This document shows, piece by piece, positions 3,402 through 63,723 of a stretch of DNA of 64,000 nt. The notes below the pieces were generated by a model. That model was not told the DNA's origin, ran no database searches, and saw only the letters and a program-made list of their open reading frames with translations. Position numbers and translations under genes: made by a program. Source of the DNA: an uncultured Chthonomonadaceae bacterium (GTDB taxonomy: Bacteria; Armatimonadota; Chthonomonadetes; Chthonomonadales; Chthonomonadaceae); the NCBI GenBank assembly GCA_963817895.1, contig CAWFQB010000001.1, forward strand, positions 1 through 64,000, read 5' to 3'. Every line of letters begins with the position of its first letter. Positions within the stretch are counted from its first letter, which is position 1.

Positions 3402-6255
3402 TCTTCAGCCGCGTCCGCCACGCCGGTTTCCGCCTTGTCTGCCTGTTACTGCTTGCCACAGTTGTCGTTGCCGCTGTGCGGGCGCAAACCCCAACGCCCT
3501 ATCTTCACGCGCCCTCCGTCAACACCTATGCCAAACACGACCCCAACGGCCTGACCATTCTCCCGACCGGGCGCTATCTGAAACCTGTCGGCAAACATCT
3601 GCCCCTCGCCCGCTGGCCGCATGGTCTCGCGCTTGCTCCCGATGGCGCGACGGCCTTTGTCGCCAGTGAGGGCGTGGGACAGTTGATTACGCAATGGAAC
3701 AGCGACAAGCCGACCGTAACACCGATTACGATGGAGGCCGGGGATAATGATACGCCTGCCCGCCAGCGGCGGCGTACCAACACGGGCGCGGCGGTATTTG
3801 CGCCCGACGGCAAAACCCTGTACTGGAGCAGCGGCGAAAGCGGCGAAATCTACGTTGTGGACGTGGCCGCGCATCAAGTAACCGGCAGCATCGCGCTCAA
3901 TGGCGAGACAGGCGGGCGAACATGGGCCGATAGTTTCGCGATGGACATCAAACTCAGTCCGGCAGGAACCACGCTCTACTGCGCGGATGTGACCAATTTT
4001 CGCCTGATTGTTGTGGATACAGTTCAGCGCAAAGTGGCGGGAGCCGTTGCGGTCGGGCGTTATCCGTACGCGCTTGCCGTGCAGGGAAGCCGCGTATACG
4101 TCGCCAACATCGGCATGTTTGAATACCGTCCGGTTCCCCTTCCCGCTTCCGACGCAAACGACAAGCGCGGCCTGACGTTTCCGCCCTTCGGGTTTCCGAG
4201 TAAAGAAGCGACAGAGGGCGTCGAGTTTGAGGGCAGGCGTATTCCCGGTTTGGGCGATCCCAACGCCGCCTGAGTCGTTTTCCGTGTGGGGCGTGGACGT
4301 ATCTTCGCCCTCACAGCCCCGCGTCGTCAGCCGGGTCAAAACCGGCCTGCTCGTCGGCGCGGCTTCCGACAACGGCAAAACCGTGGGCGGCAGCGCGCCC
4401 AATTTCCTCGTTATGGAGCCGAAATGCCTCCGAACCGGGCGGGTTGTGGATTTCCAACGGCAACAACGACAGTATCGAGCGGCTGGATTTGCGGACCAAT
4501 AAGATCACGCGGCGCGTTCCCATTCGGCCTTCCAAACTTGTTGCCCGTTTGCGCGGCGTGGCTCCGTCTGGCATGGCGCTTTCCCCGAATGGCAGCCGCC
4601 TGTATGTCGCGGAGTCCGGCCTCAACGCGATTGGGGTGATTGACACCAAAAGCGGCAAAGTGATTGGACACATTCCTACCGCGTGGTATCCCTATCGCGT
4701 TGCCGTGTCCCCGGACGGCAAAAAACTGCTGTGCATCTGCTTTCGCGGCTTTGGCAACGGCCCCAACGCGGGCAAATCCATCCCCGACAGCGCGTTTCTG
4801 CATCTCAAAGGCGTTCTGTCCGTCTTAGACGCGCCGACCAATGCCCAACTCGCGCCCATGACCGCGAACACGCTCGCTTACAACGGAATTGTGGATGGCA
4901 GCGCGGAGCGCGAAACGCTTGCCAGTCCCCTGATTCCCACTGTTCCCGGCAAACCCTCCGAACAAATCAAGTACGTCGTTTTCATCACCAAAGAAAACCA
5001 CACCTACGATACCATCTTCGACCACATTCCCGGCGCGAACGACGATCCAACGTTACTGCGCTGGGGCCTGCATCAGAAGATTGCCGCTCCCGGACAGCCC
5101 ACATTAAACGACGCCCCTGTAATGACCAACCACAACGCGCTGGCCCGGCAGTTCACCGTCAGCGATAACTTTTATATGGAACCCGAAGCGTCCGGCGTGG
5201 GGCATCGCTGGCTTGTGGGCGTACAACCCGACAACTTCTGCCAGATGCTGTACACGCTGGGCTGGAACTTCAAACTGAACAGTACGGCTCCCGGCAGGCG
5301 CGCATCCTTCGGCTCTAACGGCTCTCTTGCCCCGGAAGACTACCCGGAAGCCGGTTCCATGTGGGAGCATCTGGCGCGGCACGGCATCCCTTTCCGCAAC
5401 TACGGCGAGGGCTTTGAGTTCGCGGGCGTGGACGAGGGCGACAACGAAAAGCGGACGGGCGCGCGCGAAACAGTCAACATCCCCATGCCGAAAGTCCTCT
5501 ACGACAACACCTGCCGCGAATATCCTATCTTCAACATGAACATCCCCGACCAGTACCGCGCCCACTGGTTCATGCAGGATTTTACGGCGCGCTTCTTACA
5601 GGGAAGAGGGAAAAGGGAAAAGGGAAAAGAAGAGAAGATACGAGATACGAGATACAAGATACGAGCAGGAAAGGATTCATCCCTCATCCCTCATCCCTCA
5701 TCCTTTTTCCTCAACATCGCCCTGTGCAACGATCATGGAACCGGGCCGAACGCGGCGAAGGGCTATCCGTATGTCGCGTCGTGGATGGCAGACAACGATC
5801 TGGCGCTGGGGAGGGTTGTGGAGTTTTTATCACACACTCCGTACTGGAAAAACATGGCGATTTTTGTTACGCAGGACGATGCGGGGGGAGAACCGGACCA
5901 CATAGATGCGCAACGCAGCGTACTGCTGTGCATTAGCCCGTTCGCCAAACACGGGTATGTATCACATCGTCACACTACAATTGTCAGCATGCACCGGACG
6001 CTTTATGAGATATTGGGACTGCCGCCGCTCAACATGTTCGACGCGCTTGCCAACGACTTTTCCGACTGCTTCACGACCACGCCGGATTACCGCCCGTATA
6101 CATGCGTTGGCGTTGACCCGCGCATGTTCGACCCGGAAAAGGCCAAAGACCCCAAAGACCCGGAATACAAAAAGGCCGCGCAAACCGCTTCCATCCTCCG
6201 CGACGACCCCGACGAGGAAGCGGAAAGGGAAACAATTCCGTCCAAACCGCGCTAA
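3401..6255 (+). pseudogene. Secreted YncE/YVTN beta-propeller + alkaline-phosphatase-superfamily phosphoesterase; start codon (2246) separated by the IS; extra frame switches at about 4270 and 4440
   Basis: Propeller repeats (PHGLALAPDG, PYALAV, PSGMALSPNG), IKYVVFITKENHTYD, DNDLALGRVVE, TQDDAGGEPDHIDAQRS. The signal peptide is restored when the IS is removed. Confidence 0.85.
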
Positions 6256-6513: not shown

Positions 6514-6622
6514 GTAGATTGTTAGGTTGTTAAGTTGTTAGTTGTTAGTTGAAATACTTGAGTGTCTCGATCTAACCGTCTGTACACGTAGAACCTAACA
6601 ACCTAACAACCTAACAACCTAC
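6514..6622. repeat. Inverted-repeat element of 8-nt tandem units (GGTTGTTA)n ... (TAACAACC)n
   Basis: Arms 6514-6541 and 6595-6622 pair at 26/28. Confidence 0.85.
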
Positions 6623-7423: not shown

Positions 7424-7576
7424 GTTCCGGGATTAGGTTGTTAGTTGTTAGGTTGTCAGGTTGTTGGGTGTTCACTTCAAGAACTTGTCGCGTTCAAAGT
7501 AGACTGTTATTCACTTGCATTTTCATGGATACCTAACAAGCTGACAACCTAACAACTAACAACCTGACCCCGGAAC
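7424..7576. repeat. Second (GGTTGTTA)n inverted-repeat element
   Basis: Arms 7424-7474 and 7526-7576 pair at 45/51. Confidence 0.88.
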
Positions 7577-35798: not shown

Positions 35799-38414
35799 TC
35801 AACGCGATAATTCGATCCACAGCGTGGGAGGGGAGCCGATTTGGAGGCGGGTTTGCGCGTCGGAAATGGCGAGAGGGAGGAGTTGCAGGCGCTTGCCGTG
35901 TTCGTCAAGAGCATAGGCTTTCCAGCCGGAACCCGCGTTCAGGGAAAAGACGCCCTGAACCGGCTCCACGCGAATGGGCGACCTGCCCGGATGGGTCACG
36001 CTGGTACGGCCCGAATTCATAATCATGCCCGTGTTTTCCGCGCGGGCGGCTGCCGTCAGCAGCAGATGCCGCGAGTCGGCAATCGGCTGTCCGTCCAGGC
36101 TGGAAAGCAGAAGGGAGGAAAATTCGGTTGTGGGCGCAAAGGTGACGGGGCCAAGTATGACCGTCTGCCCGCCCGTGAAGCCGACAAGCGCGACGGAGCG
36201 GGGCGTATTTACCGTCAAAACGCCGTTCTGCGCGTCCCACTGCGACTGTTCGGTTTTCCATACGGCGGAAAGGGGAGGAAACGGAAGCGCAGAGGCAGGC
36301 TGCGAACGGGCCGCGCCCATTCGGGTTTGCAGCCGATGCGTGAACGCGGCATCCAGAGAAAAGCCGTCGTTGAGGGTTCGCCCCGCGAACAGATCGGGGT
36401 CGCTTGCGCTTGCGGTGAGAACATCGGGCAGGGGCGTAATGTCGCGGCGATAAAACATCAGAGCGCAGGCGGGCCACTGGCTGAATACGTGCGGTTTGTT
36501 GCCCAGGTCGAACTCGTTGTCAATTGTATCCGCCCAATCCGCGCCCGTAAAATCGAACCAGATCATCACGTCCCAATCCTGCTGACACGCGGCCAGAGTA
36601 CCGATCATCGGACCTTCCGCGATGTGGTCGTTGGGCCAGCAGAAGCACCATTCCGTGACCACAAATGGCTTGCCCGCAACCCGCGTTTGTGACAGAAGCG
36701 GCACAAGTCCGTTGTCAAGGGGATTGGTGAGCATGGGCGTGTTGTCAAATTTCTGGAAATAGCCGAAACCGCCTTCGGGATGGTCCCAGTAAAAGTGGCG
36801 GTCTATATAATCAGTGCGGGCATCGGCGCGAAGAGCGACGCCCAGATCTTCCCAGTGGTTGCTGCCGGTCGTGGCGCAGCGGACGCCAATTTTGCGCAGG
36901 TACGCTCGCATTTCGTCATAATAACCACATTCCAGAACGTACAGGGCGTGTTTGGTCGGGGCGTCGAACGGCTCGCGTTTGGGGTCGGCGCGAGGGTCTA
37001 TGTGGCGGCACAAGGCTTGCAGGTCACGCATATACGCGGGCGGAACGCGATAATACCAGTCCTCATACAGCAGCGAATCCTCGTTAATGACCTCCATCAG
37101 CGCGAGCGCGGGATCGTCCAGCCAGCGCGAGTGGGCATAGGGGTTGACATGCGTGAGCAGTTGCCGGATGTACTTTTTATGCAGCAGTTTGATGCGCGGG
37201 TCGAAGTGCGCGACGATTTTCAGCCCGTCCTCGATTGCCATGCCATCCCGTACCCGGTCGCCCGCTTTGAAATGCCGGTTCGTCAGCAAATCCAGATACA
37301 CGTAAATGCCCCTTTTGCGCAGTTGCGCGACGAAGTAATCCAGTTTATCCAGACTGCGCGTATCCAACTGCTGCGTATCGTGACGGCGCGGATTGAACAC
37401 GTTGGGATCGCTCCAGGGCGCGTCAATGTGGTGCAGGCGAACGATATTGACGCCATTCCGCGCCAGCCGGGCGGCAATGCGGGGCGCGTCCGCATGAGAG
37501 GGAAAGCAGGCGTCCGCCATCATGTCCACGCCCCAGAACCGCGCCCGCGCGCCATCCGCAAAAATCAGGTGTCCATCCGCCCCTGTCCGCGTAAACCCGT
37601 GCCTGCCCGCCGGCGCATCCAATAAGAAAGAAACATCTGTTGCAGGAGAGGAATAGACAGGATTAACAGGATTTTCAGGATTAACAGGATTATTTCGAGT
37701 GAGCGCAGGCAGGCTTTCAATCTTCTGTCTCCTGTCTCCTGTCTTCTCTTCTCCTTTTCTCCTCTTCTCCTTTTCTCCTTTTCTTCCCTCGCTTCCCCAC
37801 TGATACCACCCCCGGGTGTCCGTTCGCGAGTCGGGCGGCGTGTGGTAGGTTTGGTCACCCCGCGTCACCTGCAAATGCGCGTTGGCGAACCAGGCGGTTC
37901 CCTGACAGCCGTTCAAGCCGAGCGTGATCTGGATGCGGCGCGTGTTGGGCGGAACCGGAAACGCACGTTCATAGTTTCGCCAATCCCGCGTACCTGTCCA
38001 CGTTCCGAGATCAACGGACTCGTTCAGCAGGCTGCCATGCGCGTCGAAAAAGTACAGCGCGGCGCGACAGGCGTTTTCCGGCCCCCGCCCGCCCCGAACA
38101 CTCTTCCATGCGGCCTCGATTCCGAACCTAATTTGCTGTATCCGCCTGCCGTCCAAAGGTAAATATTGCGACGCGAACGCATCCTGCGGAAAGGCGAGAA
38201 ACGTTTGCAGGCAATGGGGATGCCGCGCATCCACGCGCCGATGAGAAATGCCCTCGTGCGCCCCCCATTCGGCGGGAGCGGCTTGAAACAATTTCTTGAA
38301 GTCGCCATTCAGGATCAGATTGGGGGCAGAAGTATCAGAAGTGGAAGTGGTCTTCACGGTTTGAGGGAAGCCAAAAGCAAAGCAGAGAAACAGCAGAAGA
38401 TTGAAAATGGGCAT
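35799..38414 (-). CDS. Secreted carbohydrate-binding-domain + GH5/GH-A-like glycoside hydrolase
   Basis: Signal peptide; NLILNGDF...GTRDW...GTAWFAN CBM-like module; RFWGV, GVNIVRLHH, HVNPY, EVINEDS, KPFVVTEW. Confidence 0.82.
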   Translation of the reverse strand: MPIFNLLLFLCFAFGFPQTVKTTSTSDTSAPNLILNGDFKKLFQAAPAEWGAHEGISHRRVDARHPHCLQTFLAFPQDAFASQYLPLDGRRIQQIRFGIEAAWKSVRGGRGPENACRAALYFFDAHGSLLNESVDLGTWTGTRDWRNYERAFPVPPNTRRIQITLGLNGCQGTAWFANAHLQVTRGDQTYHTPPDSRTDTRGWYQWGSEGRKGEKEKRRKGEEKTGDRRQKIESLPALTRNNPVNPENPVNPVYSSPATDVSFLLDAPAGRHGFTRTGADGHLIFADGARARFWGVDMMADACFPSHADAPRIAARLARNGVNIVRLHHIDAPWSDPNVFNPRRHDTQQLDTRSLDKLDYFVAQLRKRGIYVYLDLLTNRHFKAGDRVRDGMAIEDGLKIVAHFDPRIKLLHKKYIRQLLTHVNPYAHSRWLDDPALALMEVINEDSLLYEDWYYRVPPAYMRDLQALCRHIDPRADPKREPFDAPTKHALYVLECGYYDEMRAYLRKIGVRCATTGSNHWEDLGVALRADARTDYIDRHFYWDHPEGGFGYFQKFDNTPMLTNPLDNGLVPLLSQTRVAGKPFVVTEWCFCWPNDHIAEGPMIGTLAACQQDWDVMIWFDFTGADWADTIDNEFDLGNKPHVFSQWPACALMFYRRDITPLPDVLTASASDPDLFAGRTLNDGFSLDAAFTHRLQTRMGAARSQPASALPFPPLSAVWKTEQSQWDAQNGVLTVNTPRSVALVGFTGGQTVILGPVTFAPTTEFSSLLLSSLDGQPIADSRHLLLTAAARAENTGMIMNSGRTSVTHPGRSPIRVEPVQGVFSLNAGSGWKAYALDEHGKRLQLLPLAISDAQTRLQIGSPPTLWIELSR
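37654..37790. repeat. In-frame composite tandem-repeat insert, including one arm of the CAGGATT(AA) 9-mer element
   Basis: TAGACAGGATTAACAGGATTTTCAGGATTAACAGGATT (37654-37691), then (TCTCCTG)n and (TCTCCTTT)n. Confidence 0.85.
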
Positions 38415-38481
38415 AAGGCATTGTGCAGCGTATTCCACGCTCCTCCGCCAATCATAATACCCGAACACCTTAATTAGAAAA

Positions 38482-40137: not shown

Positions 40138-40911
40138 ATGTTGTCCTCGTTGAGGAACAGGTTACTGGCGCTGGATACCCCGCCGCGCATAGACGCGGAC
40201 GAACTGATTGACGATGAGACGCAGCCATACGCGGATTTTCGGGCCAGCATGTCCGACGTGCGCCGCGCCAACCGGTATCTGGGCGGCACGGTCGTTGTGG
40301 CGCGACAGGCGCATATTTGGCTGGAGCGGGAACGGCAAACAACCGCAACTCGCATAGAACCTTTGCGCTTTCTGGATGTGGCGACCGGTTCGGGCGACAT
40401 TCCCCACGCGCTGACCGATATGGCCCGTCGCCTCGATGTGCCTGTTCAAATTGTCGCGCTGGATTACAGCCCGCCCATTTTGCGCTACGCCCGCGAACAG
40501 GTCGGTCATCTGGAACCGATTCGCCTGATACGCGGCGATGCGTTTCATCTGCCCTTTGCCGACGGCAGTTTCGATTACGCGCTGTGTTCCCTCGCCTTTC
40601 ACCACTGGGGACTGGAGCGCAGCGTGGACGCCCTGCGTGAAATGGAGCGCGTGTCCCGGCGCGGCTGGCTGGTCAACGACCTGCGCCGCGCCTGGTCTGC
40701 CTGGCATCTGATTCGTCTCGTCACGATGTTCGCGGGTGTGAACCGACTGACGCGCCACGACGCCCCGGCCTCCGTTCTGCGCGCCTATTCCCTCGCCGAA
40801 TACGAAGCCATGCCCCGCGCCCTGGGCCTGACGGTCGGGCGGGAGGCGCAATTAAAGCGCAGCCAGTTTTATCGCGTGGCGTTGGTGAGGGAGAAGATAG
40901 TGAATGGGTAG
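40138..40911 (+). CDS. SAM-dependent methyltransferase
   Basis: RFLDVATGSGDI, GDAFHLPFADGSFDY, VNDLRR, HDAPASVLRAY. Confidence 0.88.
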   Translation: MLSSLRNRLLALDTPPRIDADELIDDETQPYADFRASMSDVRRANRYLGGTVVVARQAHIWLERERQTTATRIEPLRFLDVATGSGDIPHALTDMARRLDVPVQIVALDYSPPILRYAREQVGHLEPIRLIRGDAFHLPFADGSFDYALCSLAFHHWGLERSVDALREMERVSRRGWLVNDLRRAWSAWHLIRLVTMFAGVNRLTRHDAPASVLRAYSLAEYEAMPRALGLTVGREAQLKRSQFYRVALVREKIVNG

Positions 40912-40951
40912 ATAGGTAGATGAGTAGATGGTAGAACGGCGCGGCTTTCTT

Positions 40952-42319
40952 ATGAACAATCAAAAATCGAAAATCGAAAATCGGCAATCCACGCCGGATT
41001 CATCATTCATCCTTCATCCTTCATCCTTTGACGTTATCATCGTAGGCGGTGGACCGGCGGGCGCAACGCTGGCGGCTTTGCTGGCGGGGGAAGGGTGGAG
41101 CGTCGCGCTGCTGGATCGGGCGCAATTTCCGCGCGACAAAGCGTGTGGCGAGTTCCTCACGCCGCAGGCCGCCCGTCTTCTCAAACAGCCTGGCGTGTGG
41201 CAAACATTGCGGGCGCAGGGCTTGCGGGACGTAAGCGCGACGGTTCTGGTTGCGCCGGATGGCCGGCAGGTGGAACACGCGCCCCTGACCGGCGAACCCG
41301 CCGGCTACGCGCTTCGCCGAACCGTTTTGGATGTCGCCCTGCTGCAACACGCCCGCGAAAAGGGCGCGTTTGTGGAGGAGGGTTTTGGGGTCCGCGAATT
41401 GTGCCGCAACGAGGACGGGCGCGTAATCGGCGTGGCGGGCAGGGATAAAACAGGCGAAATCCGAACGCTACACGCCCGCCTGATTGTTGGCGCGGACGGC
41501 ACGCACTCGCTTGTGGCCCGCCAACTGAATCTGGTAAAACCCATCCCGCGCTTGCAGCGCATCGCCCTTGTCGCGCACTGGCAGGGCGATATTGGCGGAC
41601 GGCGCGATACTATTGAAATGCGGACGCATGGCCCGCTCGTTTGTGGGTTGGGATTTCCCGGCGAGGAGCAGAGTAGCCCTCAACCCCCGGCCCCTTCTCC
41701 CAAAAAGGCCTGGGAGAAGGGGAGTCGATCTATTTCGTACTCTCAGGTGAACACCGTATGCGCCAACACTACTTTTGTGGTTCCCAACGACTATGCCCCG
41801 CAAATCGCCGGACGCGCCGAAGAGTGGATAGAGCAGACGCTGACAACCTGTTTCCCCGATCTTGCCGAGCGTCTTTCTCCTGCTGCGGGTACGCTCAAAG
41901 TCCGCGCTGTCGGCTGTTTCGGGCATCGCTCCCATTCTCCGATTGCCGACGGCGCGTTGCTGGTGGGGGACGCGGCCACGTTTATAGACCCGTTTACAGG
42001 CGAAGGCGTGTACTTTTGCCTGCGCGGAGCGCAGCTTGCGGCAGAAACGATACACAGCGCGTTACAAAAGAACGACACGTCCCGGCGCGGCCTGCGAAAC
42101 TATGCCCAACTGCGGCAGGAACTGGCCCGCCGTTACCTGCTCATTGATCTGGTGCAAACCGTTGTGCGAACGCCCGCGCTGTTCAATCCCCTCGCGAAGA
42201 GGCTGGAACGCTTTCCGGGCGCGGCGGAGCGCCTGCTGCAAATCCTCGGCGACACCCGCCCGCCGGAACACGTCCTGCACCCCATGCTGCTGTGGCGGCT
42301 CTTCGCCCCCTGCTTTTGA
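40952..42319 (+). CDS. FAD-dependent oxidoreductase (geranylgeranyl-reductase/monooxygenase-like)
   Basis: DVIIVGGGPAG, FPRDKACGE, VGADG, LVGDAATFIDPFTGEG. Confidence 0.88.
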   Translation: MNNQKSKIENRQSTPDSSFILHPSSFDVIIVGGGPAGATLAALLAGEGWSVALLDRAQFPRDKACGEFLTPQAARLLKQPGVWQTLRAQGLRDVSATVLVAPDGRQVEHAPLTGEPAGYALRRTVLDVALLQHAREKGAFVEEGFGVRELCRNEDGRVIGVAGRDKTGEIRTLHARLIVGADGTHSLVARQLNLVKPIPRLQRIALVAHWQGDIGGRRDTIEMRTHGPLVCGLGFPGEEQSSPQPPAPSPKKAWEKGSRSISYSQVNTVCANTTFVVPNDYAPQIAGRAEEWIEQTLTTCFPDLAERLSPAAGTLKVRAVGCFGHRSHSPIADGALLVGDAATFIDPFTGEGVYFCLRGAQLAAETIHSALQKNDTSRRGLRNYAQLRQELARRYLLIDLVQTVVRTPALFNPLAKRLERFPGAAERLLQILGDTRPPEHVLHPMLLWRLFAPCF

Positions 42320-42349
42320 GGGTAAACTACCGAAAAACGAGGAGGAATT

Positions 42350-42537
42350 TAGACAGGATTAACAGGATTATCAGGATGAACAGGATTTTTAACGGACAGG
42401 GAAGTTAAACATTGATTCCTGTGGTTTATGAGAATTTGCGACTTAAATCACATGCCCATTCCCTCAATCCTGCCGCAAACCGTCTTGTCTGTCCATGAAA
42501 ATCCTGTTAATCCTGATAATCCTGTTAATCCTGTCTA
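42350..42537. repeat. Gene-less inverted-repeat element of 9-nt units (MITE-like)
   Basis: Arms 42350-42389 and 42498-42537 pair at 39/40. Confidence 0.9.
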
Positions 42538-42552
42538 TTTCTGGAGATTCAA

Positions 42553-43821
42553 ATGGTTCAGCGGAAGGTTGTGGTGGTTGGGGCGGGTTTGTCGGGGCTG
42601 TGCTGCGCGCGGACGATACAGCGGGCGGGGCATGTCGCGCATGTCTATGAGGCGAATGACGGCGTGGGCGGGCGAGTGCGGACGGATATGGTGGACGGCT
42701 TTTTGCTGGACAGGGGCTTTCAGGTGCTGTTTACCGCGTACCCGGCTATCCTGCAAGAGATGGACATGGATGCGCTGGACATTCGCGCGTTTCAGCCGGG
42801 CGCAATCGTTTGTCGGGACAGTGAGCGGCAAATCATCGCTGACCCTTTGCGCGCCCCGTCAAAAATCATTCCCACCGCGCTTGCCAACCTGTTTTCGTTC
42901 GGGGATAAATTGCTCGTCGCCAAACTGGCGCTGCTGCTGAAAAGCATGACGGTTCAGCAGATTTTCGCCCTGCCGGATCAGACGATGGGCGCGTATCTGA
43001 GCGATTTCGGCTTCTCCGCAGAGTTCATTGACCGTTTTATCCGTCCGTTTTACGCGGGCATTTTTCTGGATAAGAGTCTGGAAACCAGTTCGCGGATGTT
43101 CGCGTTCGTGTTTAAGATGCTGGCGGAGGGGCAGACGGCGGTTCCGGCAAAGGGAATGGGCGCGCTGGCGCAGCAGTTTGCCGATACGATGACTCCCGGC
43201 AGTATCCATCTTAATAGCCCGGTACGCGAGTTGGCGCATAAGAATGGGCGCGTGGCGGGCGTGGCATTGGAGGGTGGCGAGATTGTAGAAGCGGATACGG
43301 TTGTTCTGGCAACGGAGTTCGACAGGGCGGCGCAACTGGCGGGACTGCATCTGCCCGCAGAGTGGCGCGTGTCCAACACGCTTGCGTTCGCCCTGCCCGA
43401 ACCCCTGTACCGCGAAAAGCTGCTTTCGCTCTTTGTATCGCCCGAAGGACTCGTCAACAACGCGCAAATGATGAGCAATGCCGCGCCCTCGTATGCCCCG
43501 GAGGAACAGCATCTGCTCACGGCAACCGTGTTGGGCGATGTTCCTCTTTCTGACGCGGAACTGGCCGCAGTTGCCAAAGCCGAAATCGCCGCGCAGTTCC
43601 CCGCCGCGCAGCCGGAGTCGTGGCGCTTGCTGCGCATTGACCGGGTACGCTGGGCGCAATTCGCGCAGCCGGTGGGCATCTGGGGCAAACTGCCCGACGC
43701 CCGCACTCCCCTCCCCGGCCTGATCCTGGCAGGCGAAATCACCGTGCAAAGTTCGCTGCACGGCGCGCTCGTATCCGGCCAACGCGCCGCCGGCCTGGCC
43801 CTGAGTATAAAAAGAAATTAG
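42553..43821 (+). CDS. FAD-dependent oxidoreductase (amine oxidase/protoporphyrinogen oxidase-like)
   Basis: VVVVGAGLSGL, VGGRVRTD...DRGFQVLFTAYP, SSLHGALVSG. Confidence 0.88.
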   Translation: MVQRKVVVVGAGLSGLCCARTIQRAGHVAHVYEANDGVGGRVRTDMVDGFLLDRGFQVLFTAYPAILQEMDMDALDIRAFQPGAIVCRDSERQIIADPLRAPSKIIPTALANLFSFGDKLLVAKLALLLKSMTVQQIFALPDQTMGAYLSDFGFSAEFIDRFIRPFYAGIFLDKSLETSSRMFAFVFKMLAEGQTAVPAKGMGALAQQFADTMTPGSIHLNSPVRELAHKNGRVAGVALEGGEIVEADTVVLATEFDRAAQLAGLHLPAEWRVSNTLAFALPEPLYREKLLSLFVSPEGLVNNAQMMSNAAPSYAPEEQHLLTATVLGDVPLSDAELAAVAKAEIAAQFPAAQPESWRLLRIDRVRWAQFAQPVGIWGKLPDARTPLPGLILAGEITVQSSLHGALVSGQRAAGLALSIKRN

Positions 43822-44329
43822 ACAGGATTAACAGGATTTTCAGGATTAACAGGATTTTTCCAACGACGCAATCAATAATAGCCAATCCTGGCAAGTTTTC
43901 ACAGGAGGAAGCTCATGAATGATGACGAGATCAGGCAGGCGATTATTGGGCTGGCGTTTAAGGTACACAAGTATCCTGGCGCAGGGTTCGTCGAGAAAGT
44001 TTATGAGAACGCGCTGAAGTTGGAATTGGAACGGGCAGAGTTTATTGTGAAACAGCAAGTTCCCATTGATGTGCTGTACGATAGTGTTGTAATAGGAGAG
44101 TTCTTCGCAGACCTGATTGTTCAAAATAAGGTCATCGTGGAACTCAAAGCCGTACAGTCGCTGCTGCCGGAGCATGAAGTACAACTGGTAAACTACCTGA
44201 CGGCCACCGGCATTGAAAGCGGCCTCCTCCTCAACTTTGGCAAAAGCGTACAAATGAAGCGCAAATTCCGCGAGTACAGGAAACTGGAAAAATAATCCTG
44301 TTAATCCTGAAAATCCTGTTAATCCTGTC
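43821..44329. mobile_element. Putative mobile cassette: GxxExxY gene between perfect 36-bp inverted repeats
   Basis: GACAGGATTAACAGGATTTTCAGGATTAACAGGATT (43821-43856) is the exact reverse complement of 44294-44329; mobility is inferred. Confidence 0.7.
43915..44295 (+). CDS. GxxExxY protein (PD-(D/E)XK nuclease fold)
   Basis: AGGAGG RBS; GAGFVEKVY motif; ADLIV...IVELK; QLVNYL...GLLLNFG. Confidence 0.93.
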   Translation: MNDDEIRQAIIGLAFKVHKYPGAGFVEKVYENALKLELERAEFIVKQQVPIDVLYDSVVIGEFFADLIVQNKVIVELKAVQSLLPEHEVQLVNYLTATGIESGLLLNFGKSVQMKRKFREYRKLEK

Positions 44330-44332
44330 CAA

Positions 44333-45127
44333 ATGTCCTTTTCTTTCCTTCATCAAAATCCTGTCAATCTTGTCCAACATGCGGACGCGCTTGAGTGGCG
44401 CAGTCGGCTGACCGTTGCGCATGGCGTCGGCTGGCTGGCGGATAACGAATATTACGCGGCGATGCAGGCGGCCGTACACCAATTATTCGAGGCGCAGGCG
44501 TTTCCCGTCGCTTATACGGAAGCCGATTTGTGGTACGAGCGGGATTGGCTCGGCAAGCCGTTCGTGACCTGGCGCGGAATTGTGCAGTCGTGGGCGGAAG
44601 CGCGCGGGTTGGAAGCGAAGCATCTGCATGTTTCCAATACGCACGACGGCGGGGCGCATATCGTGGTTGCCGCGTACCATCCTGAATTAGTGGGTATCGG
44701 CATAGACGCGGTATATCTGCCCCGGCTGATGCAATCGGGGAAAGATGACGTTTATCTGCGCCGTTTCGCCGCCCGGTTCATGTCCGAACGGGAGCGGATG
44801 CTATTTAAGCAGGCGAACGCGAACGACAATCTGGCAGCCTTGCGATTGCGTACCGCCGCGCACTTCTCTTTAATGGAAGCAGGATCGAAGGCGTTGGGAA
44901 CCGGCCTGAAAATCGGCGGCGGCATGGGGCGCGAAACCTCCCTGCCCAAACAAAGCATCGGCGTTCAGCGACTGGAACCCGGTTTGGAACTCGATGCGGA
45001 AATGCTTTTTGAGGGTGACGCGCTGAAGCGTCTGGATGAATTAGGCGCAGTCCGCTCGGAAGCCTATTGGAGCGCGGACAAGGAGTTCTTAATCAGTGTC
45101 GTGTTGTTATGGCGTAGGGTACAATAA
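44333..45127 (+). CDS. 4'-phosphopantetheinyl transferase superfamily protein
   Basis: DWLGKPFV, LHVSNTHD, GIGIDAV, FMSERE, FSLMEAGSKALGTG. Confidence 0.78.
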   Translation: MSFSFLHQNPVNLVQHADALEWRSRLTVAHGVGWLADNEYYAAMQAAVHQLFEAQAFPVAYTEADLWYERDWLGKPFVTWRGIVQSWAEARGLEAKHLHVSNTHDGGAHIVVAAYHPELVGIGIDAVYLPRLMQSGKDDVYLRRFAARFMSERERMLFKQANANDNLAALRLRTAAHFSLMEAGSKALGTGLKIGGGMGRETSLPKQSIGVQRLEPGLELDAEMLFEGDALKRLDELGAVRSEAYWSADKEFLISVVLLWRRVQ

Positions 45128-57171: not shown

Positions 57172-58096
57172 ATGTTACCCATTAACCTACTGCCTAACTA
57201 CATCCATGATCGTGGCAAAAAGCCTAAACTGATGGCGGTTTATGGCGGCGTTATCGCGGCGATCATCATCGGCGCGGTGGTTTACGCCAATGGCATCCAA
57301 AATGACGTGAATAAGTCCAAAGAGGAACTGGCAACGGCGCAAACAAAGCAGACCACGTACAACGCCAAAGTCAGCGAAATCAACAAGATCAAGGGCGACA
57401 TCGCCGAAATCGGAACCAAGCAGACGTTCATCGCAACCGCGCAGACCTACAATCAGTCCTGGCCGGACACCTATGAGCTGATGCGCGACCTGACCAGCAA
57501 GGATGTCCTGCTCAAAAGCATGGCAATCGCTACGGATCGCAAAACGGTGACGTTGGCGGCCTTTGCCGCCAACGAGATGATCATCGCCAAATGGTGGATA
57601 GACGCTGAAAAATCATAAAGAAATTTTTGATAACGTCACGATGCAGATTCCCACGCATCCCTATAATCCCGCTAGCGCTAACGGGCCAGGCGGCGCTCCG
57701 GGCGGTGGCCCCGGTTCGGGCGGTTTTCCCGGCTCTGGTGGGGTAGGTTCCTCCATGCCGCTGGGAATGAGCATCAGCGGCGGAGGCTTTTCAGGTTCCG
57801 GTGGCTTTCCCGGGTCGAGCGGCGGGGGTGGCGGCGCGGTCGAGGGCGTTGGCCCCACCGAAATCGAGGGCAAGTCCGGCGTCAATTTCAGCGTCCGCGC
57901 TATTCTGAAAACCATGCTTGCAGGGGGTGGGACAGCGCCCGTGTGGCCGAGCAGCGCTCCTCCGGCTCCAGCCGGGGGCGGTTTTGGCGGCGCGGGCGGC
58001 GGCGCGGTCAGCGGTGGGCCAAGTTCGAGTGGCGGACCGGGTTCAAGTGGTGGACCGGGTTCAAGTGGTGGACCGGGTTCAGGCGGGAGGGATTGA
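57172..58096 (+). CDS. PilN-like protein with Gly-rich segments; frame switch at about 57605
   Basis: INLLP PilM-binding motif, TM segment, coiled coil; directly after pilM. Confidence 0.8.
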
Positions 58097-60360: not shown

Positions 60361-61140
60361 TTGAAAACACGTTATGGAATTTACGGTCTGGCAGGCGTGT
60401 CGCTGGCCGCGCTGGGATTTCTGGGCATGCCGTCTATAGCGCGCGCCCAGGACGCGCCGGGTACCGACCCGACCAGCGGCAGCGAAGCCTCCAAACAACC
60501 TATCAAACTGGACCTGGAGAACGCGGACCTGTATTCGGCCCTGAAACTGCTGTTCGCGCAGGTCAAGGCCAACTACATAATTGATCCGGGCCTGCGGCAG
60601 CTTTCGGTGTCGGTGCATCTTTCCAACATCCCGTTTAGCACCGCGCTGGGATTAATCCTGCGCAGCGTGAACTCGCCGGTTCCTCTCACCTACTCTGTAG
60701 GTGAAGGCGGCGTGTACTCCATTCTGGAAAAGAAGGCGCCCGTGGATGAGGGCGGCGTGGTGGATGCGCCGATTGCAGATCCGGCAAGCAGCCTGTTGAA
60801 GTTCCGCAAGTTTTTCGGCACCACCGGCGAACTGCACTATAACTCCTTCTACATTGCGCAGCTGCTTGGTGTTAAAAACATCGTCCGATCCATCATTCAG
60901 GAACAGCAGCAGGGTGGCGGCGGCGGCTTCGGCGGCGGTGGCATAGGCGGCGGTCAGGGCGGCTTCGGCGGCGGGAGCAGCTTTGGCGGCGGCGGGAGCA
61001 GCTTTGGCGGTGGTGGCAGTAGCTTTGGCGGTGGTGGCAGCAGCTTTGGCGGCGGCAGCAGCTTTGGCGGCGGTGGCGGCAGCTTTGGCGGCGGCGGCGG
61101 CAGCTTTGGCGGCGGCGGCGGTGGACGCGGCGGCTTCTGA
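60361..61140 (+). CDS. Secreted STN/secretin-N-domain-like protein with (GGGGSSF)n tail
   Basis: GGAGGAG RBS; signal peptide ending ARA; IKLDLENADLYSALKLLF...VSVHLSNIPFSTALGLILRS. Confidence 0.72.
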   Translation: MKTRYGIYGLAGVSLAALGFLGMPSIARAQDAPGTDPTSGSEASKQPIKLDLENADLYSALKLLFAQVKANYIIDPGLRQLSVSVHLSNIPFSTALGLILRSVNSPVPLTYSVGEGGVYSILEKKAPVDEGGVVDAPIADPASSLLKFRKFFGTTGELHYNSFYIAQLLGVKNIVRSIIQEQQQGGGGGFGGGGIGGGQGGFGGGSSFGGGGSSFGGGGSSFGGGGSSFGGGSSFGGGGGSFGGGGGSFGGGGGGRGGF

Positions 61141-61637: not shown

Positions 61638-63515
61638 ATGAGCTTGCAACGTTCCGGGGGGCGCAAGCGCCGCCTGGCGACAACCGCTGTGGCAGGCGCG
61701 TCGCTGTTAATGGTCACGGGCCTGACTGCGCGCGCGCAGCAGGGCGCTTTGCCCGCAGAGGACTCCGGCGCGCAGGAAGCGCAGCTGAAGAATGTAGACC
61801 TGGTGGATACTCGCCTCTGCCTCGGCTTTGCGCCTGGTGGCGCAGCAAACTCACGTCGAGTACGTGTTGCTGCCGGGCAACTATCGCCGCATACAGGTTT
61901 CCATTTCGCGCAAACCCGTATCCGAAGCGTTGAAAATCATCGCGCAGTCGGCAGGCGCGGAACTCTGGCAGGATGCCGGCGTGTTCTTCATCGGCCCGGT
62001 TGGCAGCGCGCCGCATCCGGCCGCGCCCCCGGTTCTTGCCGCCACGCAGGACATACAGGCTCCACCCTCACAGCGCGTCCTCAAGTATGAGAAGTTCTTC
62101 CTCAAATACACGCCGCCCAAGCGTATGCTGCGCATGCTGGGACTGGCCGGCCTCGGACCTGAATGATCCCGATGAGCAATTCGAGATCGCCAACAACCGC
62201 CAGTTTATTGAAGGCATGTATCCGCGCCCCTATTTCAGCGGAAACGGCAGCGGCGGCGGCCTCACCGTGCTGCCGTATGGCGCAGGTCCGGTAAGCGCGC
62301 CCCTTCCCAATGCCGGTCCGCAGGTCGGTCCAGGCGCGCCCAATCGCGCGGCGGAGATTCCGCACCAGCCGGTGCAGCCCAACAGTGTCGGCGCTCCCGC
62401 CGCTCCTTCCGTGGACAACGGCGCGAACGGCGACCAGAGCGCGCGCCGCGATACCCGGAACTTCAGCGAATTCGGCAGAGGACAGGGCGCAGCCGGCGGT
62501 CTTCAGCCACCCGGTGGCGCAGGCCAGAACGGCGCGCCCGCAGGTCAGGGCGCGGCGCAGGGGTTTCTTCAGGGTATCTCTGCACAGGACATTTTTGCTC
62601 TGGACGCGGACAACTCCCTCGTTTTGCGCTACGACGATCCGATCCAGATTCAGAACTTGCAGCAGGTGCTTCAAGTGCTGGATGTGAAGCCGCGCCAGAT
62701 TCAGATCAAAGCGGAATTCGTCACGGTCACGCAGAACGATGTCAATTCCTTCGGCCTGAACTTCAACTTTACCAAAGTGAACCTGCTGGCGGGCGCGAAC
62801 ATCGGCTACCAGACGGCCAATACCGCCTTTCTCCAGTACGCGACGGGAAACCTGCAAACGCAGCTCAGTTTCATTATCACGCAGGGACGCGGTAAGGTGG
62901 TTGCATCGCCTCTCGCGACGACGCTTGAACGGCGTGGCTGCGAACTTCACGAGTACACAGCTAATCCCGGTTATTACCTCGAGCGCTATGCTGACGAACA
63001 ACGGCCAAAGCGCCGTTACGACAACTATCACCCCGGTTCCCGTCTCAGTGCAGTTGAACGTAATTCCGCGCATCAATGGAGACGACTCCATCACTCTGAC
63101 CGGCCTGGTCATTTTCAGCGACGTCACCGGAACGATCACCAACCCGTCCGGTGGTTCGATCCCGATTACTATTACGCAGCCAGTAACGATCACGCGCATC
63201 GTTCGCAACGGCGACTCGATGGTTATCGCCGGCCTGACCCGCAAGCGCGACAACGTTTCCACCAACAAGGTTCCCCTCCTGGGCGACCTGCCCCTGATCG
63301 GAACGCTGTTCCGCTCCCGCAACGTCACCACAGACGACTCGGAACTGGTTGTCTTCATCACGCCCACCATCATCCCAGAGCGTCCGAGCGGCGGCCCCTC
63401 CGGTTCGGGCGTCGGCAGCGGCCTGAACGCTCCCGGCGCGTGGCGGCGGTGGCGGCGGCCTGCCGACAGTGGGCGGCGCGTTGATGCCGTAAGGGTTAGG
63501 GTTTCAGGGTTTTAA
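61638..63515 (+). CDS. Secretin (PilQ/GspD type); several frame switches, 3' end uncertain
   Basis: N-domain PVSEALKII; LDVKPRQIQIKAEFV; LNVIPRING, VRNGDSMVIAGL, KVPLLGDLPLIGTLFR, ELVVFITPTII. Confidence 0.88.
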
Positions 63516-63712
63516 GGTTCTATGGTTTCAGGGTGTCAGGCTGTTTGATGATGTGATGAAGCCATAAATCTTTGCAACCGCGCTCAACAGCCGCAGGAGG
63601 GAAATCCTTCTGCGGCTGTTGCTGTTCAATCGGTCAAGTGTTCAGGTATCATATTTATCTGTAACACCCAAAACCATAAAAACCTAAAACCTTAGAACCC
63701 TAACAACCTGAA
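63493..63712. repeat. Imperfect inverted repeat of about 8-nt (GGTTTTAG-like) units enclosing a hairpin
   Basis: 63493-63540 vs 63663-63712. Confidence 0.65.
63585..63621 (+). terminator. Hairpin after the pil operon
   Basis: CAACAGCCGCAGGAGG-gaaat-CCTTCTGCGGCTGTTG. Confidence 0.65.
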
Positions 63713-63723
63713 AGGATAATTCT

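Follow-up and report, generated by a model that had tools for sequence, protein, structure and literature searches.

The closest described relatives of the element treated here are the repetitive extragenic palindromes (REPs) and REPINs with their REP-associated tyrosine transposase (RAYT) genes, together called REPtrons, and the TIRtrons (PMC3116915, PMC3733652, PMC5581495). As far as the accessible text of these papers goes, both combine a single-copy gene flanked by a repeat with dispersed inverted doublets of that repeat, occur as several gene–repeat pairs per genome with their closest proteins in other genomes, are inherited largely vertically, and leave repeats that can persist where the gene is missing. 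All of these features recur in a 509-bp cassette that we describe from the first 64,000 nucleotides (the window) of contig CAWFQB010000001.1 of an uncultured Chthonomonadaceae bacterium (assembly GCA_963817895.1, here G000), in which a GxxExxY gene lies between inverted arms made of tandem units. The cassette differs in that its protein has the PD-(D/E)XK fold and is not an HUH tyrosine (Y1) transposase, and in that its arms are tandem nonpalindromic 9-mers, not GTAG-tagged palindromes, and nest in hairpins of other units; the terms "tandem" and "TIR" are absent from the accessible text of the RAYT study (PMC5581495).

Other systems share parts of this anatomy. Coxiella's 23S rRNA intervening sequence (IVS) is, according to the accessible part of PMC4990558, an element of ~0.45–0.5 kb with a small open reading frame (ORF) between terminal inverted repeats containing tandem heptamers, excised by RNase III; the focal cassette, in contrast, sits between two protein genes and not in an rRNA helix, its ORF encodes a GxxExxY protein, and its arms lack the G–U bias of an RNA stem. 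Insertion sequences (ISs) and miniature inverted-repeat transposable elements (MITEs), as outlined in the background of PMC3733652, also have gene-bearing and gene-less members with common terminal inverted repeats, and TA flanks most arms of the focal family, but the cassette has no transposase, and the copy with the gene is old, occurs once and has not been amplified. The TAACTGA repeats of Beggiatoaceae are short tandem arrays scattered over gene junctions and patchily distributed across phyla, but they are direct heptamer repeats, and the accessible text of PMC4679880 names no linked gene family and reports that its authors saw no mechanism. The cassette would work like a REPtron yet is neither one, nor an IS or MITE, nor an rRNA IVS. 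Its protein is a member of PF13366 (PDDEXK_3)/TIGR04256, for which the accessible part of PMC3424549 gives function unknown, mixed clades and multiple transfers, and is silent on flanking repeats. Our literature search, which did not cover subscription papers and supplements, found no publication that connects GxxExxY with flanking repeats, and the link appears to be both widespread and unpublished.

Five observations form the basis of this report: the arm–gene–arm anatomy, the gene-less dispersal of arms, the pairing of protein clade with repeat unit, purifying selection on the gene, and gain or loss at orthologous junctions. We see an even chance that they reflect a REP/RAYT-like partnership, in which the nuclease reads the unit of its own arms in DNA and cuts at the hairpin, host repair copies the arms, and the gene rarely moves. 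New here are the clade-to-unit test, a gene-less allele and the evidence that speaks against this partnership.

Results

The Cassette and Its Protein

The cassette consists of four parts.

43821..43856, + strand: left arm, four 9-nt units with core CAGGATT
43857..43914, + strand: spacer
43915..44295, + strand: GxxExxY gene, 126 amino acids, predicted PD-(D/E)XK nuclease
44294..44329, − strand: right arm, reverse complement of the left arm without a mismatch

No exact inverted repeat is longer than the 36 bp shared by the two arms (43821–43856 / 44294–44329), compared with a maximum of 11 bp and a mean of 7.1 bp in 300 dinucleotide-block shuffles; the repeat extends to 42 nt at 95% identity. 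About four 9-nt units make up each arm, and within the left arm we found an exact 18-nt duplication (43823–43840 = 43841–43858). The last base of the upstream stop codon (TAG, 43819–43821) is the first base of the left arm, the GxxExxY stop (TAA, 44293–44295) runs into the right arm, and the next ATG follows at 44333. No transposase was found among the ORFs of the cassette, the only profile match being PF13366/TIGR04256. An earlier sequence-only reading of this DNA had described perfect 36-bp arms of four CAGGATT-type units, an exact fit into the gene junction, the absence of a transposase and a GxxExxY protein of PD-(D/E)XK fold; the repeat search and shuffles, the coordinates, the ORF and profile scans and the protein analyses below agree with it on these points.

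The spacer carries a Shine–Dalgarno-like AGGAGG (43903–43908) and has no similarity to those of 43 homologous cassettes. Shuffled versions fold far less well than the cassette itself (z −7.4, DNA parameters). A promoter and terminator scan of the locus found one of each, the same as in shuffles, and an Rfam scan of 42200–44500 gave no match. As to a target-site duplication, the dinucleotide TA precedes 54 of 57 arms genome-wide, yet not the right arm of the focal cassette, and the comparisons with relatives yielded no exact arm-free allele similar enough for alignment.

The 126-amino-acid product scores 131 bits against TIGR04256 (cut-offs 35 and 22), also matches PF13366, and has the name-giving motif as G24-E27-Y30. 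Its structure model (pLDDT 91.9) is matched best in Foldseek by Cas4 SSO0001 and lambda-type exonucleases (E 1e-4), and a wide structural search retrieved BpuSI (Z 8.7, root-mean-square deviation 2.7, 97 residues aligned) and SSO0001 (Z 8.1, 4.5, 102 aligned), placing Cas4, lambda-exonuclease and restriction-type nucleases as its fold neighbours. Because many PD-(D/E)XK proteins score close behind, the fold is clear and no single family is singled out; a sequence search for homologues with solved structures returned none at E ≤ 1. The residues D66, E76, K78, Q90 and Y94 are all intact in the focal protein and conserved in 147, 146, 147, 147 and 144 of 148 homologues, respectively. On the model, the protein thus has the PD-(D/E)XK nuclease fold with its catalytic set, and nuclease activity is predicted. 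The homodimer prediction scored 0.20 against a mark of 0.42, which is not evidence either way. A PADLOC scan gave no match, and on that ground the identity as a defence system was rejected. Among eight longer homologues that could be fusions, we read five: none contained a transposase, and three (P0001, P0003 and P0007) are read-throughs in which GxxExxY continues across its own right arm into a gene for a pilin-like N-methyl protein. Homologues occur in 8 of 72,556 plasmid records, all under 60%.

Arm Units Follow Protein Clades

To compare arms and proteins across taxa, we pooled loci from G000 and 20 relatives, the 80 closest homologues in genome contigs, and the paralogues listed in 20 homologue-holding genomes; dropping 19 phosphopantetheinyl transferase (PPTase) loci, duplicates, fragments and edge loci reduced the 220 loci to 148. 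With a flanking inverted repeat counted as present at a score of at least 30, inverted arms flank 121 of the 148 GxxExxY genes and none of 132 distal control windows. Arm similarity correlates with protein identity between genomes (rho 0.62, and 0.25 without the focal clade; 0 of 1,000 permutations each), in a sample that is enriched for the focal clade and in which kin are not independent. The focal motif is found at 65 of 76 focal-clade loci, on both sides at 46 of them, and at 0 of 72 others, the clade boundary (support 0.91) having been drawn after the arms were seen. When the arm of each of 71 genes was set against that of its closest protein in another genome and those of its home paralogues, the former was the more similar in 53 cases. 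The enrichment of flanking arms and the co-variation of unit and clade, both proposed from the sequence as checks, were thus found, and the unit follows the protein clade across phyla.

The same pairing is repeated within G000, where four clade–unit pairs stand side by side. Its four PF13366 genes are mutually 34–48% identical, and 4/4 have inverted tandem arms (inverted-repeat scores 70–85), each of a different unit; hand-made regular expressions for the four units hit 53, 116, 27 and 169 sites. An abundant CGCGAAA-type arm had no cognate gene by eye in this genome, which is 81% complete. Elsewhere, one genome (G025) holds 15 PF13366 matches, about half of them fragments or broken copies.

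The 76 focal-clade loci scatter over 53 neighbourhood groups, so that the clade has no conserved synteny. Phylum labels cluster on the protein tree (23 changes vs 47.4 when shuffled), and inheritance of the focal gene across phyla therefore looks largely vertical. The tree is a quick and poorly resolved one, with 8 of 67 branches starred, and does not demonstrate horizontal transfer between phyla.

A Dispersed Family of Mostly Gene-less Arms

The cassette had been suggested to belong to a dispersed repeat system, and a genome-wide scan found that system. Arm sites in G000 number 61 by a seed scan, which includes a few from a related unit, and 49 by an exact pattern; most of these ~50–60 copies enclose no gene. 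Nine pairs of arms lie close together and inverted: seven are gene-less elements of 141–184 bp, one is the focal cassette of 509 bp, and the ninth pair spans 1592 bp. The focal gene is single-copy, and its cassette is the sole GxxExxY-bearing member of the family in the genome. The arms face inward and are often nested in hairpins of other units. A partner of the same unit is present within 320 bp for 18 of the 61 arms, another 27 are enclosed by an outer inverted repeat of different sequence, and the remaining 16 fall in neither group, compared with 2 of 300 random positions meeting the arm-context criteria; no back-to-back arm pairs were found within 300 bp in G000. Judged by eye, gene-less members have spacers that were not copied from one another. 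Beyond the focal family, tandem-unit inverted pairs of many unit types total 445 in G000, 368 of them with <100 bp between the arrays.

Two family members other than the cassette lie in the window.

42352..42535, no strand: 184-bp element with the same pair of arms but no gene, one gene junction further upstream
37656..37790, no strand: composite element, an arm of the focal family opposite arrays of 7- and 8-nt units from other families

The composite element is in frame within an 889-amino-acid ORF (35799–38468, − strand), to which it adds a low-complexity stretch, and two further in-frame composite candidates were seen at C1:1170009 and C7:37317. The 1592-bp pair (C14:676197–677788) surrounds a transposase-like ORF of ~436 amino acids and probably arose when an IS entered a gene-less element; by eye the ORF resembles an IS701-like transposase.

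History of the Site

The junction holding the cassette is formed by two host genes, and a degenerate arm follows the cassette downstream.

42553..43821, + strand: upstream host gene, flavin amine-oxidoreductase family (PF01593)
44333..45127, + strand: downstream host gene, 4'-PPTase-like (PF01648)
44355..44377 (start 44350 or 44355), − strand: degenerate two-unit arm, the right arm of a short gene-less allele in close relatives

In the same-genus genome G001, the cassette occupies the same junction, with the protein 71% and the neighbours 70% and 63% identical. The nonsynonymous and synonymous divergences of the focal gene between G000 and G001 (dN 0.205, dS 1.49, dN/dS 0.14) match the pace of its neighbours, and one base differs in each arm. 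The gene is under purifying selection and has long resided at one site. The two host genes are adjacent, without cassette or arms, in G004, G005 and G007 of the same family, and synteny at the junction is lost in G002.

In contigs of closer relatives, one from each of two runs that belong to different studies (depth 2 and 13), position 43840 continues into 44333 across 11–12 other nucleotides. The gene and right arm are missing from this allele, and its two left-arm units face the degenerate unit at 44355–44377 as a short hairpin. With G001 serving as the outgroup, the allele is most simply read as a loss of gene and right arm; alternatively, the cassette may have been reinserted into a resident hairpin. 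A metagenome scan for close relatives of the PPTase gene yielded only three distant loci. The degenerate unit, placed by the sequence-only reading at about 44355–44375, is real; its proposed translation as QNPVNLVQ hinges on the start of the PPTase-like ORF, as the unit falls in its 5' end if the start is 44333, and in G001 the ATG is further inside, where V-Q-H stands.

The arms themselves turn over. Among 39 arm loci (28 in G001 and 11 in G002), 26 map to a syntenic G000 junction; a focal arm is present in G000 at nine of these (eight by regular expression, one by eye) and absent from the other 17, of which two map to one place. Several of the 17 hold a hairpin of another unit and others no hairpin, and the syntenic G001 junction of the element at 42352–42535 has no arm. 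We also observed cases in which both species have a hairpin at the same junction, built of different units (L362, L365, L369, L370 and L375 vs G000).

Comparison of orthologous oxidoreductase–PPTase loci, also suggested beforehand, thus revealed a gene-less allele in two runs and arm-less loci in three genomes, and in G001, where the gene is kept in synteny, it is kept with its arms. The description of the cassette as a candidate autonomous member is not borne out as worded: the gene is single-copy, evolves in G001 at the pace of its host neighbours, and no cognate gene was found in the arm-rich genomes described below.

A Proposed Repeat–Nuclease Partnership and the Evidence Against It

The predicted PD-(D/E)XK nuclease is the likely cognate factor for the 9-base unit in DNA, and may help the arms to spread. 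Its cut would fall at the extruded hairpin or next to it, after which host repair would copy an arm into a hairpin, whether new or already present. Gene-less copies would be seeded or refreshed with the help of the cognate nuclease, as RAYTs are thought to do for REPs, and the gene would seldom move and could be lost, leaving orphan repeats behind; REPtrons are missing from some REP-bearing species according to the accessible text of PMC3733652.

The distribution of arms and cognate genes shows an association. In a set of 21 relatives, the two with a cognate gene hold the most arms (49 and 66), five others have 4–20 and 14 none; a GxxExxY gene of some kind is present in 13, and the eight without any have zero arms each. 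In 71 Acidobacteriota genomes of one class (that of G022), with a cognate gene defined as 69% or more to L030, all seven genomes with the gene have 6–92 arms, and 9 of the 64 without it have five or more (Fisher p 9e-6, kin not independent).

Several results weigh against the partnership. The main one comes from the five arm-richest of the 71 genomes (603, 200, 124, 96 and 84 arms), in which two queries found no cognate gene; the GxxExxY genes that these genomes do have belong to other clades and have other arms. Similarly, no cognate gene was found in the five relatives of G000 with 4–20 arms, and among 69 arm-bearing viral stretches none has a GxxExxY gene within 900 bp. Simple linkage of gene and arm should produce co-variation of clade and unit too, and the motif is missing from 11 of the 76 focal-clade loci, five of which form a subclade with another unit. 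Packaging is not specific to nucleases, since genes for four-helix-bundle proteins (PF05635) are packaged alike: inverted arrays of 7–8-nt units bracket 10/10 full-length loci compared with 0/10 controls, the loci being both of those in G000 (C2:440296–440616 and C1:1459269–1459577; L221 and L222) and eight in relatives (L392–L397, L403 and L407). Four-helix-bundle proteins are not known to have nuclease activity. The packaging architecture by itself does not implicate nuclease activity. Host repair has to be invoked because a 126-amino-acid nuclease has no evident joining activity, and the gene-less allele is not a clean excision footprint, as half the left arm and the older right arm remain.

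In the genome with the most arms (G053, 5.8 Mb, 603 arms), contigs end at arms, and the 0.45-kb cassette could therefore be unassembled, which is an excuse and not a test. Its relative G073 has both gene and arms, and both loss and non-assembly of the gene are possible in G053. The arms of an element share locus-specific variants with each other in this genome (L265–L281), and REP-like palindromes are nested in some; the own partner is the strictly best-matching arm in 11 of 16 cases in G053, compared with 1 of 9 in G000 and 0 of 12 in G001, where the arms are near-uniform.

Alternatively, another agent, either template switching during host replication and repair or a trans-acting enzyme, may spread the hairpins, and GxxExxY and four-helix-bundle genes may have been captured once per arm type and stayed linked without having to act on the arms. 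The arm-richest genomes without a cognate gene found, the gene-free viral stretches (69/69), the two unrelated protein families packaged alike, and the 445 inverted pairs of many unit types, mostly with short distances between arrays (368 with <100 bp), all fit such passenger genes. The arms, however, have stayed near-identical despite divergence of the spacers and of synonymous sites (dS 1.5), and an invariant active site would be unnecessary in a mere passenger. As all arm types mix in composite elements, passengers should commonly switch arms, yet the focal unit is on 0/72 non-focal loci and each paralogue within a genome retains a unit of its own. The focal unit was also missing from the Y1 transposases tested. 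On balance we consider passenger genes unlikely, if the best supported of the alternatives to the partnership with the nuclease.

RNA Processing and Host Function

The likeness to the Coxiella IVS (PMC4990558, accessible text) suggests an element of RNA, the arms pairing as a stem in the operon transcript so that RNase III would excise it, insertions would be harmless and the enclosed gene might be released or silenced. Consistent with this, the PF05635 family packaged in G000 and its relatives is that of the Coxiella IVS ORF, the cassette folds strongly (the z of −7.4 above, computed with DNA parameters), and at 83 of 129 loci the gene points the same way as both of its neighbours. The remaining 46 of 129, however, have at least one neighbour on the opposite strand. 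Among arm mismatches in 121 cassettes, the class that would retain G–U pairing in the sense RNA is as frequent as its mirror class (138 vs 137; by loci 40 vs 39); nothing therefore points to selection on an RNA stem, which weakens the IVS reading. Furthermore, RNA processing explains neither the spread of DNA copies nor the pairing of unit and clade, and we regard it as improbable.

The least probable alternative is a host role, with the arms as putative protein binding sites for autoregulation, for chromosome or transcript organisation, or as a self-tag in addiction or defence, and their spread secondary: single copy, purifying selection, host-like divergence and clustered phylum labels (23 changes vs 47 shuffled) fit it, and RAYTs have been argued to be domesticated on similar grounds (PMC5581495, accessible text), but PADLOC gave no match, neighbours are not fixed (76 loci in 53 groups), the gene is patchy (any GxxExxY gene in 13/21 relatives) and lost at the focal site, and broken copies are frequent, as in G025.

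Implications

Under the partnership between repeat and nuclease, PF13366, a family of unknown function, gains a specific predicted substrate, and the abundant tandem inverted repeats whose origin is left open in the accessible text of PMC4679880 are offered a cause. If the partnership is true, a minimal nuclease and not a transposase maintains a repeat family, REP-like DNA would have a second origin unrelated to the first, and residues specific to each clade would amount to a small code for DNA recognition; four gene–unit pairs in one genome make the idea directly testable. A far wider generalization, which we put forward tentatively and consider doubtful, is that GxxExxY proteins form a transposase-free class of repeat propagators, each clade reading its own 8–10-base unit, cutting at hairpins and in this way adding its arm to hairpins old or new, which would give nested multi-unit palindromes. 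Joined by the four-helix-bundle cassettes, they would then be a gene-in-hairpin mobilome, general and so far undescribed, that accounts for the short tandem inverted repeats dispersed in many phyla, and would hold a natural protein–DNA recognition code in 126 residues.

Transposases and Other Repeats

A Y1 transposase or RAYT as the carrier of the focal unit was rejected: 0/3 Y1 genes in G000 carry it, all three lying elsewhere, and so do 0/20 Y1 loci in the five arm-rich genomes. Two of the G000 genes (C5:223662 and C2:68237) are RAYT-like with their own REP-like flanking palindromes, and one such repeat adjoins a composite hairpin at C4:712300. At C1:1366786–1367142, a Y1 transposase gene with an in-frame TAG is followed by what by eye is a TnpB-like ORF.

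Within the window, more 7–8-nt tandem arrays in inverted pairs are found at 5600–5703, 6515–6621, 7433–7565, 40904–41028 and 63498–63713, and the units of the two G000 PF05635 cassettes also form arrays there (40904–40935 and 63498–63713). In addition, an 18-nt repeat in three copies lies at 58013–58081, and a long glycine-codon repeat at 60916–61134.
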